This document shows, in pieces, positions 10,039 through 41,423 of a DNA stretch of 64,000 nt. The notes beneath the pieces were generated by a model that saw only the letters and a list, made by a program, of their open reading frames with translations, was not told the DNA's origin and ran no database searches. How positions within the stretch are numbered: position 1 is the first letter of the stretch; each line of letters starts with the position of its first letter. Source of the DNA: a virus (taxonomy: Duplodnaviria; Caudoviricetes); IMG/VR virus record IMGVR_UViG_3300032007_000017; one strand, 5' to 3'. The position numbers and the translations under genes are program-made.

Positions 10039-11493
10039 TTATAACTCAGACTTTGTCTTGGGATCAGGAAGTTCAATTCCACCTTCAGGCTCTCTTCCAG
10101 CCGCATCATCATCTTCGATTGTCTTAATGCCAAGGTTTACAAGTTCTTCTTGTGAAACAGTCTCAGCAACCTCATTTTCATCTGTGATGATATTAGTAGA
10201 ATCAGTGTTAATAATAGGCTTATTTGCCCTAGTATTATTAATCACTGTAGGAATCAGAATATCGTAGATTGCATCATCAGGATATTCGACCATTCCATCA
10301 GGTTGAATTCTACCCATAGTAAACAGATTCTCACGGAACCATTTACCAATCTTCAGTCCATACTCTCTCATCTCAGACTGAGCATGAGAATCCTCACGAA
10401 GCTGAAGATACTTGATAAGGTGATAGAAATTAAATGTGATATAGATTCTACCACACTGAGTATTCTGAACCAGATATGCACGAGCATCTTCGGAAATCAG
10501 AGCATTGCTTCCATTCTTCTTATCCTTCAACTGGGGATAGATTTTGTTCATCTCATCGCCAAGTTGCTGGAGATTCATACGGAAATGCTTATTTCCAAAG
10601 TCAATGTCATACATATACTTCGGATCATACTTATCTGGTTTAAATTTAGCAGGACTATTGAACGGAGCACCAGAGTAATCTACATATCTCTGAGACTCCT
10701 GAGTGATACCATTACGATGACGAGTAAGCTGCTGAGTAATGATACGGCTCATATGCTTATACTCGACAGTAACAGTAAGGAATCTCATGATATCCTTAAG
10801 AGTGAATACCTGGGGCTCAGAGCAATGCTGAGCAAGCTCATAGATAAGAGCCATATAACTATCTGCACTGATAATACGAATATCATCATCGATATTCGAA
10901 TAAGTGCATGCATTGAACTTCTTGATCGATTCCATATCGGGAGCATCAATGAAGTCTTCCTTATGAAGAACTCCTGCTTCGATCAGATCAGTCATTGCAT
11001 CAGACGGAATGTACTGATGAACCATCGATGTGATAGCACGCATCATAGCATTATCGGAAATTGTATATGCATTCAGATATAAGTCGGAGAAACCTCTCCA
11101 ACTACCTCCAAGAAGCACATGCCAACCAGCATTGTTAATACTACGATGCACAACAGAGTGGAGATAATTCTTATATCCAAGTACCTCCATAAGATCATTA
11201 GAGAACTTATCGGGAACAAAGAAATAGAAAACCACATTAGAATGCTCGAGAATAGAAGTATGACCAGTCTTAGCACGACGACCAATATACGAAGACTTAT
11301 CAGCATATTGATCAGGAAGCTTGGTATCCCAGCATGAAGAACAGGCTAGAGCACAGATCTCAACGCCATTGTTCATCATGACAAGATCACCAGTGATACG
11401 ATCAGGATCAGCATATCCAGTAACTGGGAGTCTCTCTGAATCTGACTTTGTTTTCTTTAGACCGTTATTGTTGAATAAATCTTTGAGTGACAT
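10039..11493 (-). CDS. thyX: FAD-dependent thymidylate synthase
   Basis: GHTSILEH, QLTRHR..TQESQRY, EDARAYL, LREDSHAQSEMR motifs. Confidence 0.92.
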   Translation of the reverse strand: MSLKDLFNNNGLKKTKSDSERLPVTGYADPDRITGDLVMMNNGVEICALACSSCWDTKLPDQYADKSSYIGRRAKTGHTSILEHSNVVFYFFVPDKFSNDLMEVLGYKNYLHSVVHRSINNAGWHVLLGGSWRGFSDLYLNAYTISDNAMMRAITSMVHQYIPSDAMTDLIEAGVLHKEDFIDAPDMESIKKFNACTYSNIDDDIRIISADSYMALIYELAQHCSEPQVFTLKDIMRFLTVTVEYKHMSRIITQQLTRHRNGITQESQRYVDYSGAPFNSPAKFKPDKYDPKYMYDIDFGNKHFRMNLQQLGDEMNKIYPQLKDKKNGSNALISEDARAYLVQNTQCGRIYITFNFYHLIKYLQLREDSHAQSEMREYGLKIGKWFRENLFTMGRIQPDGMVEYPDDAIYDILIPTVINNTRANKPIINTDSTNIITDENEVAETVSQEELVNLGIKTIEDDDAAGREPEGGIELPDPKTKSEL

Positions 11494-11541
11494 TGTTTTA
11501 TACCTCCTAAATAATGTCTAATTTAATGTGGTCAGACATAT

Positions 11542-11706
11542 AAAAAGATACCTGGATATGATCCAGGTATCTTGAAGCGAGGTGAAATACTAGAAGAACT
11601 ACAGAAAATCATTTTAGGAGGTTAAAAATGAACAAAAACGACTGAAAGTGAAGATGACAGAGGTATTACGGACGGACAACGAGTATGGAATTCTCCTAGT
11701 ATTTCT
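11542..11706 (-). ncRNA. candidate anti-RBS sRNA B
   Basis: Promoter AACT-atcttg-TA (11717-11706), 15-bp long-range stem, UUCAUUUUUAACCUCCUAAAA in the loop, U-tailed terminator 11542-11573. Confidence 0.7.
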
Positions 11707-11717
11707 ACAAGATAGTT

Positions 11718-11728
11718 ACATATTATTT
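11718..11728 (+). promoter_or_regulatory. early-type phage promoter ACATATTATT
   Basis: Recurrent motif upstream of non-structural genes. Confidence 0.6.
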
Positions 11729-11747
11729 AAATGATTACAGAGGTGAG

Positions 11748-12608
11748 GTGTTATATTTAATGGGCTATATTGAAAACTATAAAACACTTGAAATCACTCC
11801 TATGATTCTTGAGATGAAGCCTAGAATAGAAAGTTTATTTAATTGGCTGAATGGATATGTGAATCATAGGATTAATTGTAAGCTAAACATTTGTGGATAT
11901 AGTGTTAATAATTTTGCTATATTTCAATATCCAAATCAAGTAAGTGTATATCTTGGCAGTATCATTGACTTTTCTACTCAAATGAGTCATGGATTAGATG
12001 TCTTTAATTGCTCAATGTCGTTAGCGGCATTGACAATTACTCATGAGCTATTTCATTCTGATCAGGCTCTTGATAATAGAAGATATACAGATGATAATGA
12101 GTATAGAGATTCTATCGAACGAGCAGCAGAATATAATGCAGAACAGTTTTGTGCTGCTCATATCATAGATTTCAAAATGCTATTCGGCTTTGATTATAAG
12201 ATGAAGCATAAAACTCCATATGAAAATTTCGTTAAGGGAAGTATTAGCGATTATTATGTATATGGAGTTCCTGGAGTTCTTTGTTCTACTCTTATACGAG
12301 ATAGAATGACTGATATGTTTTATCGGTATGAGAATTTTGGAATCTATATTACGGATAATAGAATGGAAGAAGTTCCTCCATTCAATTATGATACAGGGTG
12401 TATCTTGAGATGGCATGGAAAGGCTGTTAATAGTCCTGAAGATATTGCTCATTTTCAGGATTTGCTTAGAAAGTATATGAATGGTACAAATATGTATGAT
12501 ATGACGATGTCTTTATCTCATGCAATACTCGAGAAAAACAATGAACATATAGATCTTTTGTATATTTGCATCAATAATATGAATTATTATCCATTCGCTT
12601 TTGACTGA
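11748..12608 (+). CDS. HExxH metallopeptidase-like protein
   Basis: THELFH plus downstream IERAA. Confidence 0.55.
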   Translation: MLYLMGYIENYKTLEITPMILEMKPRIESLFNWLNGYVNHRINCKLNICGYSVNNFAIFQYPNQVSVYLGSIIDFSTQMSHGLDVFNCSMSLAALTITHELFHSDQALDNRRYTDDNEYRDSIERAAEYNAEQFCAAHIIDFKMLFGFDYKMKHKTPYENFVKGSISDYYVYGVPGVLCSTLIRDRMTDMFYRYENFGIYITDNRMEEVPPFNYDTGCILRWHGKAVNSPEDIAHFQDLLRKYMNGTNMYDMTMSLSHAILEKNNEHIDLLYICINNMNYYPFAFD

Positions 12609-18333: not shown

Positions 18334-18394
18334 GATTAAGAGGGGTATTTCCCCTCTTTTCTTAAGAATAAAATTATTTTAAGGAGAAACGAAA

Positions 18395-19030
18395 ATGACT
18401 AAGAACAAGAACACGAAGAACACTCTTCCGACTACCGCAAACAACACTACACTTACAGAGGATGATTTTATCAATGCGGCAGAGATGATTCTTACCGATG
18501 AACCTCTCGATGATTATCACAAGCTTCTGGCCGCTAGATCTCTCTGTGAAGCAAGTGGCGCAAACCCCGATGCTGTATTCCCTCAGATCAACAATGATAT
18601 GAGAGATCAGTATACGTCTGCTAGTAATATTCTCTCTGATGATTATTCTAGTGAAGATGATGATACTGATATCAAAGATACCACCATTCGTGCAGTCAGG
18701 GGCGATGAGGTTATTGAGGATGATGAACTCATGGTTCCTGACGAGCCCACTACTGCTATTCATGGTACTGATATCAATACAGGGATTATGAACTATCAGT
18801 CTGCTATTACTGTACTGAATCAGTATGCGTTCCTTGGTATTCCTTGTGCTATCCTTGGCAACAAGGCATGTGGATTCTTTGTTGATACTTGTCATGTGAC
18901 ATTTGAAGATCTTAGAAAGCTTTATGAAAGTGATTCTATTGATTTTCTTATGTATACTGATGGCAACAGAGCTACCATTATCAAGCAAGCAGTCTTTGAT
19001 AACTTCACTGGAATGATCGCTAAGTTATAA
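18395..19030 (+). CDS. acidic hypothetical protein
   Basis: 211 aa, AAGGAG RBS. Confidence 0.75.
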   Translation: MTKNKNTKNTLPTTANNTTLTEDDFINAAEMILTDEPLDDYHKLLAARSLCEASGANPDAVFPQINNDMRDQYTSASNILSDDYSSEDDDTDIKDTTIRAVRGDEVIEDDELMVPDEPTTAIHGTDINTGIMNYQSAITVLNQYAFLGIPCAILGNKACGFFVDTCHVTFEDLRKLYESDSIDFLMYTDGNRATIIKQAVFDNFTGMIAKL

Positions 19031-36104: not shown

Positions 36105-36340
36105 GAGAAAAAAAATAAAGTTATTTTATAGGGGTGGTGGGGAGGGTTGTACATTTCTGTACAACCCTCCCAGATGAGGTGACAAAGAAGGTGATGGCCA
36201 TCTCGAGAGAAGGAGAAACCCTGGATGGGGAAGATGCAAAATCATGTCAAATATAAACTACACCGTCAGCAGTTTTTCGACGATTTGACTATGAATACAA
36301 GCACCTATTGTACTCTCGAGACTTATTTACTTCTTCATCA
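36105..36340 (-). ncRNA. candidate early multi-anti-SD RNA E
   Basis: Early motif 36343-36355, long-range stem TCTCGAGAG/CTCTCGAGA, several CU-rich tracts, 14-bp hairpin 36140-36171; no ORF. Confidence 0.6.
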
Positions 36341-38892: not shown

Positions 38893-41423
38893 TTAGAATT
38901 TAGGTACAGAAGTCTTACCAACAGCATCAGGAAGTTTGAGTGTTAAATTATAGATTGCTTGATAAGCTTCATTACCACAGTTACGAATCGGAGTTCCTCC
39001 CATACCAATAAGATTAAAGTTCTGATTCATAACATGCTCGAGTTCCTCATTAGCCTCATCTGTGTATATTGGTTTCACGGTAATCGTATCGCCATCGTAA
39101 TCTAGATTAGTAAATAGTATTTACGGTAAGATAAATATTATTTTTTTTTACTTAAGTTCGCAATTCTTAAGCGCTTTCGCTTCTCATACTTTCGTATGAG
39201 TATAGATCATATGTTCACCCTTCTCTTTCGAGTTAGGGGCAGGATTTTTCTTCTGCCGTAAGCTTGCAGTTCTACTCTCCCGTCAGGAGATGATCGTTGA
39301 ACCTTCACCATTTTACAGGCGAGTGGCTGCTGAATTCCCATTTGCGATACCTGAGTTTTAGGATTTAACCATGACCCATCCTAATTACTTTTTTCTACTT
39401 TCGTAACCATCACGCTTGCCTTTTCAAGCTACGTTGTGGTGAATTAGGCTTTAGGGATTGCCAGCAATTAACCCTGGAAACTTACTCATTACTGAATAAG
39501 CTGAGATTACCATTAGGCTACTCCATTAAGGCCATCGAGATACAAATTACAGATATTAGCCGAGTCTACAAACATATTGGATGTATTGTTTCCAATATCA
39601 TCCTGGCGTATATATGGATAATTCTTATAGAACTTTCCATCTATTACCATAGGCTCTGTTTTATTGGTAGAGTTTACATGGATTCCAATAGGAAATTGAT
39701 TGTAGATAGAATCTCAATTGTGTTCAACTAGGGTCGCTAATCCTAGCCCGCTTTATTCAAGCTGCACTATGTCACCATAGTAGTTCAGACTATATCACCA
39801 TCTCAGAGAGATGTTCCGCATTTCGACCCGCTTGGGCCTACGTCATAAAGACTAGTCGTTGAGCCTTCCTAGCACATCCTTTTACTCTAGGCTTGGTTGC
39901 TGATTGTCTCATTTTGAGAGTTTCCAGCAATTAACGGAATTTTCTTAATAGATCGCTCTATTAAGCCACGAATTCATGGGATATCTACATATAATAGCTT
40001 TACGACCTTCAGCAGCTTCTACAGTTGCAATATAGATCAGGTCACACCATGTAAACCAACGTTCAACAATAGGCATATTGCCTACACCAGATTCGTATTC
40101 TTCTTTAGTTACATTGAATCCTTTAAAATGAAGGTAGATCTTTCTACCATCAACAGTTTCAACTTCAATAGGAAGTAATCTGGTCGAATAACCATTGCAG
40201 AAACGGTTAAGTTCTTTACGCAATCTCTCTTCAGAAAATTGCATTTGATAGTCTTTAATATAGACTATCTCTTCTTTTCCTGTCTTGGGATCAATACAAG
40301 GAACTCCTTTATTTCCAGAGAAAGCGTTTTCAAAATACCTCTTCATATGGAAGATGACAAAAGGAGTAAAGTTTGCTGCTGCTGATGCAAGAGGAATGGC
40401 AGCATAATCCAAGTCAGCCTGCATGTCTTCGATCTTTTCAACCTTCAATTCAGGGGCTGACATAACAAGACGAGAAGCATAGTCGGTGGTCTTAGACATA
40501 ACAGAACGTCTAAGAACACCAAGCTTACCAGGAACATTAGGTCCTGTAGTAGTACCATTAATAGTAGTACCATTTCCAAAATAGTCAAAGATCTGAACAA
40601 TCGACATTTGAATACGACCACGAGTAGCTCCAGCCATATCCAATCCATAGTCAGTAGATTCTTTAAGAGCTTTAGTAGCGAGAATCAGATTACGATAGAG
40701 TTGATTAATCTCTCCGATAGAGATTCTGCCACCCTTAGATGTATCCACATCTCGTAATGCAGCAGGAATAACAACTATCTTTCTAATCCATGCACCAGGA
40801 TCTCGTTTACAAGCATTGATAAAATCAACGTCTTGATCTCTACGGATTGATGCTGTTCTTGCTACATTGATTTTCTCAAAGTTATCCTTTAAGAACTTCA
40901 ATCCAGTCTTACCGTGTTCAGGATCTTCTACCAATACTCCATTATCAGTAATGGAGAAATATTTCGTTTCATTAACACAAGCAGGAATCTTCTTATCAAG
41001 CTTAGACCATACTTTATAGAGTTCTGGACTCATAAACCACTCATGAAGATCAATATAAGCACAAGTGTTCATACGATCATACATAGTGATTCCAAAGATC
41101 TCATTGGATAATAGTCCATCTGAGGTAGGAATATTATTTCTAGAGAAAGTGATTGGATTGGTAATGGGCTTTAAATCATTAACCGAAACCAATCTATCTA
41201 CATCTAGAAGATTCACTCTCAGATGCTTAGGTCTCACTTGATTTCCATCTTCATACAGAAAGTTTTCAATCAAGAATCTCATGAAACCTTCTGCTTTATC
41301 TGCACTTTTTACTTTAGTAGGAGTATTATACCTGTCATCATAGTTTTCATGCTTGGCAAATAATTCAGGATCTTCATTTCCTAAATATCCACCATTTCTA
41401 ATACTATATGGTAAAATACCCAT
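38893..41423 (-). CDS. rpoC: phage RNA polymerase beta-prime N-terminal subunit; exons 41423-39976, 39714-39521, 39101-38893 (616 aa spliced)
   Basis: DGLLSNEIFG and GKLGVLRRSVMSKTTDYASRLV; splicing restores RYPI-DS and the catalytic NG-DYDGD in frame. Confidence 0.9.
39102..39520 (-). ncRNA. group I intron 2 (419 nt, no ORF)
   Basis: P AAUUGCUGGCAA, Q UUCAGCAGCC, R UCAACGAUCA, S CAUAUGAUCU; P3 CAGGGUU/AAUCCUG; GNRA-capped P2 and P9; terminal G. Confidence 0.88.
39715..39975 (-). ncRNA. group I intron 1 (261 nt, no ORF)
   Basis: P AAUUGCUGGAAA, Q AAUCAGCAACC, R UCAACGACUA, S GAUAUAGUCU; P1 CCAU/GUGG with U.G wobble; terminal G. Confidence 0.93.

Follow-up and report, generated by a model that had tools for sequence, protein, structure and literature searches.

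A conserved clamp-closed RNA element upstream of a thyX-like gene in uncultured jumbo phages, a candidate regulator of thyX translation

Closest described systems and how the locus compares

To our knowledge, the regulatory RNAs of jumbo phages with RNA polymerases of their own have hardly been explored, and we know of none in Rfam for this group. In the Firmicutes, small RNAs of the RsaE/RoxS and FsrA types end in a terminator and bear unpaired C-rich motifs, which pair with Shine-Dalgarno (SD) sequences and block initiation. Among phages, the C4 RNA is represented by a model in Rfam, and Citron and Schuster are said to have described, in 1990, a bipartite pairing for c4. In the immI regions of P1 and P7, c4, icd and ant belong to one operon, and the C4 RNA is needed for full repression (PMC8198154). 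With respect to transcription signals the closest described phage is AR9, which has an early consensus of AAATATATATTAT-6N-G and a late consensus of AACA-6N-TA/G, the last base of the latter being the start (PMC5312081); any change at position -8 or -11 of the AACA element abolishes in vitro transcription (PMC5449584). In the text of the AR9 transcriptome paper that was covered by a text search, no small or noncoding RNA is reported, only antisense and internal starts.

The locus considered here lies in a 64,000-nt window, the whole stretch of DNA that was analysed, which is part of a viral record of 178,490 bp (~72% complete, 37% G+C). The phage encodes a split multisubunit RNA polymerase, of which beta-like and beta'-like fragments were recovered, and comparison with a cultured-phage collection yielded neither a DNA match nor a protein match to a phage. 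A gap of 266 bp (11494-11759) separates a thyX-like gene on the minus strand from a divergent gene on the plus strand (Table 1). The ThyX-like protein is about twice the usual ThyX length; its Thy1 domain occupies residues 234-388, and the ~230 aa that precede it at the N-terminus are conserved and include several Cys and His residues that are invariant. This length is shared by at least 280 metagenomic relatives. The product of the divergent gene matched no Pfam family and no PHROG family; it contains a HExxH motif (THELFH), and its gene is syntenic with thyX in 13 of 13 lineages. Elsewhere in the window a group I intron is present at 39765-39987 (-) (Rfam RF00028, 93.7 bits).

The gap between the two genes contains an element that invites comparison with each of the above systems. 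As in the case of P1/P7 c4, it would be a phage-encoded small RNA whose gene precedes that of its target on the same strand, with complementarity to the region of the ribosome-binding site (RBS), and the blocking of downstream genes by RNA pairing near this site, which is a feature of c4, is here proposed. Unlike c4, which is cut from an operon transcript, the element carries a promoter-like motif of its own and an intrinsic terminator, and a clamp formed by its 5' and 3' parts closes around one large loop; it is also found in a lytic-type jumbo phage beside a nucleotide-metabolism gene rather than in an immunity region. A search against 4227 Rfam families recovered no C4 match and no other relevant match, either with the whole window at the gathering threshold or with the region 11400-11850 at E values up to 10. 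With the RsaE/RoxS and FsrA type it would share the form of a small terminator-ended RNA with an SD-complementary motif in a predicted unpaired region. However, this motif is ACCUCC, the exact SD complement, as against the UCCC or CCCC of the Firmicutes C-rich RNAs, and it is distinguished from them further by an added anti-AUG, a single clamp-closed loop, its encoding by a phage and its lack of an Rfam match.

The helix joining the 5' and 3' ends, directly followed by a terminator with a gene downstream, is also reminiscent of riboswitch and attenuator leaders, from which the element departs in its hypervariable loop with no conserved sensor core, in having no antiterminator and in the presence of a promoter-like motif before the gene. 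Finally, the early TTACATATTAT-N6-G and late AACA-N6-TA motifs, the split RNA polymerase subunits and the intrinsic terminators are like those of AR9/PBS1-type units, whereas the thyX-upstream unit has AACT, which is inactive in AR9 in vitro. By sequence and structure, the thyX-upstream RNA is a member of neither the c4 RNAs nor the Firmicutes C-rich sRNAs. By analogy, the closest working principle appears to be that of the same-strand phage antisense RNAs (c4) together with that of the SD-targeting Firmicutes sRNAs, and its distinctive features are a clamp flush with the transcription start site (TSS), an exact SD complement combined with an anti-AUG, a predicted promoter of phage-polymerase type, and the setting in an uncultured jumbo phage.

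Anatomy and conservation of the RNA unit

A first-pass annotation of this DNA had described a minus-strand RNA unit in the gap, with a 15-bp clamp, a pyrimidine-rich loop enclosed by this clamp and carrying multiple anti-SD sites, and a UCACCUC sequence after the clamp leading into a U-tailed terminator. Direct reading of the minus strand recovered each of these components: GAAAUACUAGGAGAA (11705-11691) pairs with UUCUUCUAGUAUUUC (11598-11584), and the loop contains UACCUCUGUCAUC (11665-11653) and GUUCAUUUUUAACCUCCUAAAA (~11633-11612). The clamp proved to be longer still, with 17 bp formed by 11705-11689 and 11600-11584 (15 Watson-Crick and 2 G·U pairs). The unit appears to be equipped with both its own promoter-like motif and its own terminator, and given its position between divergent genes it is, as had been argued, not a 3' UTR. 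The loop is composed of 44% U, 26% C and 11% G. Its module complementary to the thyX translation initiation region (TIR), here termed the anti-TIR module, consists of CAU (11630-11628), a U-rich spacer, ACCUCC (11622-11617) and UAAAA, in the order CAU-UUUUA-ACCUCC-UAAAA. The terminator hairpin (11573-11545) with its U-tail was the sole terminator-like site reported in a scan of 10800-12400.

Table 1. Features of the thyX-upstream locus (window coordinates)
Feature	Coordinates	Strand	Basis or remarks
thyX-like gene	10039..11493	-	484 aa; Pfam Thy1 1.1e-25; PHROG thymidylate synthase families
thyX-like translation initiation region UUUAGGAGGUAUAAAACAAUG, proposed target	11491..11511	-	pattern match
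Second late-type motif, degenerate, CACATTAAATTA, predicted start 11519	11519..11530	-	positional conservation
Intrinsic terminator: 13-bp stem, 3-nt loop, U-tail	11540..11573	-	hairpin 11573-11545
Linker ACCUCGCUUC, 10 nt, single-stranded, ACCUC-bearing	11574..11583	-	between clamp and terminator
Clamp 3' arm AGUUCUUCUAGUAUUUC	11584..11600	-	sequence, fold, inverted repeat
Loop, 88 nt, U/C-rich, predicted largely unpaired	11601..11688	-	composition, fold
Anti-TIR module	11612..11633	-	complementary to thyX ribosome-binding region
Second pyrimidine motif UACCUCUGUCAUC	11653..11665	-	sequence reading
Clamp 5' arm GAAAUACUAGGAGAAUU	11689..11705	-	sequence, fold, inverted repeat
Late-type promoter motif AACTATCTTGTA, predicted start at final A (11706)	11706..11717	-	AACT-N6-TA
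Early-type promoter TTACATATTAT-N6-G of divergent gene, predicted start at G (11733)	11716..11733	+	motif copies in genome
Divergent gene	11760..12608	+	ATG start 11760; 282 aa

The minus strand folds with a predicted energy of -45.5 kcal/mol (z -6.0), compared with -40.7 kcal/mol (z -3.9) and an interrupted stem for the plus strand, because the G·U pairs of the clamp become A·C mismatches on the latter. A 15-mer repeat of this kind is expected by chance about 0.7 times per window when up to two mismatches are allowed; the 17-bp inverted repeat, with its exact placement between the promoter motif and the terminator, is not a chance occurrence, and it recurs in 12 other lineages with sequences that differ.

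The comparative evidence comes from DNA fetched around a sample of the hundreds of metagenomic relatives of the ThyX-like protein, a first single-protein scan of viral contigs having found nothing. Thirteen metagenomic lineages, with ThyX proteins that are 37-73% identical, and a 98% twin have the same layout ahead of thyX, with the element occupying gaps of 200-380 bp between the same gene pair and showing the same anatomy throughout. In these lineages the 5' arm begins 0-3 nt past the predicted start, the loop measures 39-176 nt, a strong terminator (-15 to -24 kcal/mol) follows 1-15 nt past the clamp in all 13, and the terminator ends 52-82 nt ahead of the thyX ATG; the linkers are C/U-rich in about half of them. 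The sequences of the clamp arms are unrelated between lineages (e.g. GAAAUACUAGGAGAAUU, AAAUGUAGAUGGU, AUUGAUAUGAGAUUUU and AAGAUGAGAAUAGGU). On a structure-anchored alignment of 10 lineages 136 clamp positions were counted without a single mismatch, 127 of them being Watson-Crick pairs and the remaining 9 G·U. The 5' arm pairs over 9-17 bp with the 3' region of its own lineage, whereas its pairing with the 3' regions of the other lineages averages 6.5 bp. The stem supposed in the earlier reading is thus kept via compensatory changes, and the G·U pairs in it fix the strand as minus. MAFFT followed by RNAalifold, when applied to the entire elements, gave no pairs at all, owing to misalignment of the loops. 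No conserved ORF or peptide was detected in the element on either strand. More distant thyX loci with a different gene order are devoid of the RNA element, as is one lineage (L095) in which thyX lies 78 nt from the divergent gene. A low-scoring match of the 3' arm and terminator to the Bacillus sRNA ncr1241 (24.8 bits against a cut-off of 60, E 0.055) was rejected as a chance similarity because the arm sequence is not conserved in the relatives. Taken together, it is very likely, from the comparison of these sequences, that a conserved structured RNA gene exists at the locus; its product is predicted to be, probably, a separate small non-coding RNA of ~167 nt extending from 11706 to ~11540 on the minus strand.

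The loops, divergent as they are, mostly have anti-SD content in common. Among the 6-mers of ten loops ACCUCC, which is complementary to the SD core GGAGGU, is over-represented by far the most strongly, with 12 occurrences observed against 0.27 expected from dinucleotide-preserving shuffles; all but one of the ten contain it. A count over 13 loops gave 29 instances of CUCC and a single GGAG; the count per loop is 1-3 CCUCC and up to 4 CUCC motifs, while the loop of one lineage (L010) is without any CUCC. Several copies read (U)CACCUCC(U), which resembles the 3' end of 16S rRNA. The anti-SD enrichment that the first-pass annotation had read from a single loop is therefore strong across the lineages, and often combined with a CAU (anti-AUG) 4-10 nt upstream. 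The core of the loop can be summarized as CAU, a 5-9-nt A/U-rich spacer and (U)UACCUCC, which together constitute the collinear complement of a start codon and SD. The same text is equally the complement of a perfect SD and ATG on the plus strand, belonging to a mini-ORF (MNKND*); this was rejected as a gene, since it is not conserved, being absent in some lineages and showing no common sequence elsewhere.

A second RNA in the same genome, RNA E, had been said to be alike in layout, and this likeness holds: at 36339-36100 (-) a 10-bp clamp begins from the first base and is followed by an ACCUC linker and then by a hairpin of 14 bp, the z of the fold being -5.9. The broader claim of a dispersed family stands at the level of layout only and for RNA E alone, which is the member that was checked. 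RNA E is preceded by an early-type promoter with its start at 36339, a promoter class that differs from that of the thyX-upstream RNA, and its first 10 nt pair with CUUCUUUGUC ~150 nt downstream. A scan of the genome for units in which a late promoter is combined with a terminator and with a clamp of 12 bp or more lying flush with the TSS recovered no other example; the few shorter clamps that it returned were rejected as being terminator hairpins themselves. The clamp/ACCUC/hairpin design may be reused in this genome.

Promoter motifs at the locus and across the genome

The predicted start of the RNA, 11706, is one base ahead of the clamp. Across 10 aligned lineages little or no variation is seen in the TAACT, in the T at -1 or in the A at the start, whereas the N6 spacer is free to vary in sequence. 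In length the spacer departs from N6 in two of the 13 lineages, being N5 in one and N7 in another. In the 80-nt regions upstream of genes, AACA-N6-TA occurs 35 times against 3.8 expected and AACT-N6-TA 13 times against 3.8 expected (3.4-fold), such that the late-type class as a whole (AACA/AACT) is enriched 3-9 fold upstream of genes; genome-wide, TACA is weakly enriched, and CACA and GACA are not enriched. Examples of AACA-N6-TA(A) are situated at window coordinates 9901 (-), 59277 (-), 68856 (+) and 73859 (-), and the extended consensus of the late motif is approximately (C/G)AACA(T/C)TTnA(G/T)TAAT. The two promoter classes also differ in the genes that they precede, with GGAGG present in 48% of the TIRs behind late-type promoters versus 14% of those behind early-type ones.

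An AT-rich block had earlier been taken as the promoter of the RNA, and this assignment has to be revised: the block is largely the early promoter of the neighboring gene, and the signal proper to the RNA is AACT-N6-TA. The two promoters stand back to back with a 2-bp overlap (11716-11717). There are ~40 copies of TTACATATTAT-N6-G genome-wide, almost always intergenic, and in 14 of the 16 exact copies a sense gene lies downstream, in the orientation seen for the divergent gene; other copies are at window 8399 (-), 25315 (-) and 36339 (-). In the lineage L093 the AACT motif is ~15 nt away from the early promoter and yet flush with the clamp, and it therefore belongs to the RNA.

Of 11 lineages examined, 10 have retained a further motif, of the form xAC(A/T)-N6-TA(A/G), which stands at a fixed distance in the stretch that separates the terminator from the thyX SD. 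In the present phage it takes the degenerate form CACATTAAATTA, the first base of which is off the AR9 consensus, and judging from its placement it is probably thyX's own promoter. Position -8 of the upstream motif is T in all lineages, which sets it apart from an AR9-type late promoter. Since changes at -8 or -11 abolish transcription in AR9, the calling of both AACT and the proximal xACA as promoters assumes a relaxed specificity in this clade, and the genome-wide enrichment supports such a relaxation for AACT only. AACT-N6-TA might accordingly be viewed as a promoter class similar in function to the AR9 late consensus, though distinct from it in sequence.

Candidate targets, competing readings and implications

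The target first proposed for the RNA was a TIR of the form AGGAGGTTAAAAATGAAC, and no gene in the 178-kb record has such a TIR. Instead, the closest match in this record to the composite pattern of the anti-TIR module is the adjacent thyX ribosome-binding region, with which the module forms an inverted repeat (I2) of 16 nt at 88%. RNAduplex predicts pairing of the RNA with the thyX TIR at -16.9 to -18.7 kcal/mol, reaching from the SD to the AUG (about -27 to +5). The pattern TTTAGGAGGT-N1-2-AAAA-N0-2-ATG has exactly two matches in the 178-kb record, namely the thyX TIR and the complement of the RNA, and the equivalent pattern of the lineage L013, GGAGGTAAA-N1-8-TATGAG, likewise occurs only in the thyX TIR and the RNA complement of its 57-kb record; both patterns were composed after viewing the sequences, and hence they illustrate how far the match extends and do not amount to an independent test. 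Lineage-specific bases beside the start codon match the lineage's own thyX, as in L013 with CUCAUA and in L049, where GCCAUAA faces UUAUGGC; in L092, UCCUGUGUCAUA pairs with UAUGACAUGGGA near the start codon, again in a lineage-specific manner.

These correspondences were assessed by permutation tests, in which each RNA was scored against its own thyX TIR and against the TIRs of other lineages under several scoring schemes that were tried. For the thyX TIR the ungapped score gave p 0.022, the gapped collinear score p 0.008-0.024 and the RNAduplex energy p 0.075; for the TIR of the divergent gene p was 0.3-0.45, with no lineage specificity, and reversed or sense controls were not significant. 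The second pyrimidine motif, UACCUCUGUCAUC, has complementarity at 11 of 12 positions to the 5' terminus that is predicted for the divergent mRNA (direct repeat D5). The TIR or 5' end of the divergent gene was nevertheless rejected as a partner, the pairing being not lineage-specific (p 0.2-0.45).

By RNAduplex energy thyX is only 25th of the 387 TIRs of the genome, and the best energy, -25.1 kcal/mol, belongs to the gene at 18395-19030, whose TIR (window 18365-18402, +) pairs with the 3' half of the loop in two blocks that cover the SD and the AUG. This gene is a possible second target candidate; its 211-aa product belongs to no Pfam family, and no homologue is present in the 57-kb relative record (a fragment, 23% complete). 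In two lineages (L004 and L094) pairing between the RNA and the cognate thyX SD is poor. In L092 (957-1149) and L093 (939-1154) a near-identical loop module (…CCUGUGUCAUAACG…GUUUACCUCCA) coexists with thyX TIRs that differ, which hints at another conserved partner, and the several copies of ACCUCC per loop are more than one target requires. The best match in an ungapped search for targets across the genome was only ~2 sd over shuffles, complementarity to the genome's TIRs overall is no better than that of composition-matched shuffles (mean 18.96 vs 18.68), and the TIRs of early- and late-promoter genes are equally complementary (p 0.76). In RNAduplex runs of the whole loop against all TIRs, artefacts of long loops and a G-rich repeat gene with a glycine-rich product dominated the results. 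This gene, with GGTGGAGG-type repeats, lies beyond the window at ~167,780-168,550 (-) in window coordinates, and dominates naive anti-pyrimidine duplex searches in general. The permutation tests lend modest to moderate support to thyX as the target of the RNA.

We accordingly favor, at an even chance, a model in which an independent phage sRNA represses the translation of thyX by pairing. Transcription would start at the AR9-like late-type promoter AACT-N6-TA, with late timing being probable. The first bases of the transcript would then pair with a segment just upstream of the strong intrinsic terminator to form a clamp of 13-17 bp, which would bury both ends of the RNA and probably stabilize it, and which would hold the long U/C-rich loop open. 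The loop would in turn display one or more copies of ACCUCC, with the core CAU-spacer-ACCUCC being collinear with the thyX start codon and SD 50-80 nt downstream. Pairing with the thyX TIR would block ribosome binding, and might take place either in trans, on mRNAs initiated at the proximal thyX promoter, or in cis, on read-through transcripts.

An alternative is that the RNA is real and that its ACCUCC copies act broadly, with the thyX match being incidental; such a general anti-SD RNA might pair with many strong SDs, whether in the mRNAs of the phage or in those of the host, or it might act as a decoy for some factor recognizing the 3' tail of 16S rRNA. The multiplicity of CCUCC and CUCC motifs in the loops and the resemblance of several of them to the 16S 3' end speak for this possibility, but an undiscriminating repressor would also strike the phage itself, given the frequency of GGAGG among its late-promoter genes. 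Similarly, other TIRs in the genome surpass that of thyX in pairing energy, and the module common to L092 and L093 is retained despite their differing thyX TIRs; against this, complementarity to the TIRs at large does not exceed that of shuffles, and the start-codon flanks are lineage-specific and match the cognate thyX in L013 and L049. The siting of RNA E, with its similar clamp/ACCUC/hairpin layout, elsewhere in the genome is a further point in favor. On balance we consider a general anti-SD function unlikely. A more specific variant, by which a late, stable, clamp-closed RNA made by a clade of jumbo phages exposes multiple copies of the ACCUCC found in the 16S rRNA 3' tail and acts as a multivalent SD sponge or as a decoy for an anti-SD factor, with thyX as one client among others, appears slightly less likely still; if true, the RNA would constitute a tool by which translation is reprogrammed globally.

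It might also be asked if the element is merely the 5' leader or attenuator of thyX, in which case AACT would be the thyX promoter, and the clamp and terminator would form a cis-acting device for premature termination and SD sequestering that is relieved by some factor. The colinear arrangement of promoter, structured RNA, terminator, SD and ATG on one strand in 13 of 13 lineages is compatible with this, but the presence of a promoter-like motif past the terminator in 10 of 11 lineages is not easily accommodated, even if this proximal motif is off the AR9 consensus at an essential position. While pairing with the anti-SD module (by means of I2) could keep the thyX SD sequestered in read-through RNA, the best alternative pairing of the left arm of the terminator is equal to that in shuffles in 9 of 10 lineages, indicating no antiterminator, and the terminators themselves are uniformly strong. 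Furthermore, loops that vary so widely in length and have no conserved alignable core are unlike a ligand- or protein-binding sensor, no leader or riboswitch match was found in Rfam, and L095 possesses thyX without the element. The leader or attenuator reading is thus weakened, and we regard it as improbable.

The least tenable proposal, a very remote one in our estimation, is that of a plus-strand or DNA-level feature, i.e. real RBSs with mini-ORFs (MNKND*, 11628-11645) or a protein-binding inverted repeat: although a perfect AGGAGG, a 6-nt spacer and an ATG are present, with CAU lying 4-10 nt upstream of about one third of the CCUCC sites in relatives (by eye) and small ORFs of 5-30 aa occurring in most lineages, these ORFs have neither length nor sequence in common (6, 25, 7 and 11 aa within one subclade), three lineages (L004, L008 and L012) have no usable start, no promoter motif lies upstream, the nine G·U pairs of the clamps would be mismatches, the U-tail of the terminator exists on the minus strand only, and arms placed 88 nt apart, with a spacing of 39-176 nt among relatives, are ill-suited to a protein operator.

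The repression of thyX by a dedicated phage RNA hence remains our preferred reading, and the RNA itself is a new family of a known regulatory kind. As a candidate it has unusually clean comparative support in its position, its promoter motif, its fully covarying clamp and its enriched anti-SD word. If confirmed, it would mean that a nucleotide-metabolism gene is controlled post-transcriptionally by a dedicated phage RNA, and that the short promoter variant AACT-N6-TA is functional. The combination of a terminator with an anti-RBS loop that is held open by a TSS-flush clamp would then represent a reusable design, perhaps to be found in other phage genomes. The RNA and thyX thus offer a directly testable pair of RNA and target for an uncultured phage clade.
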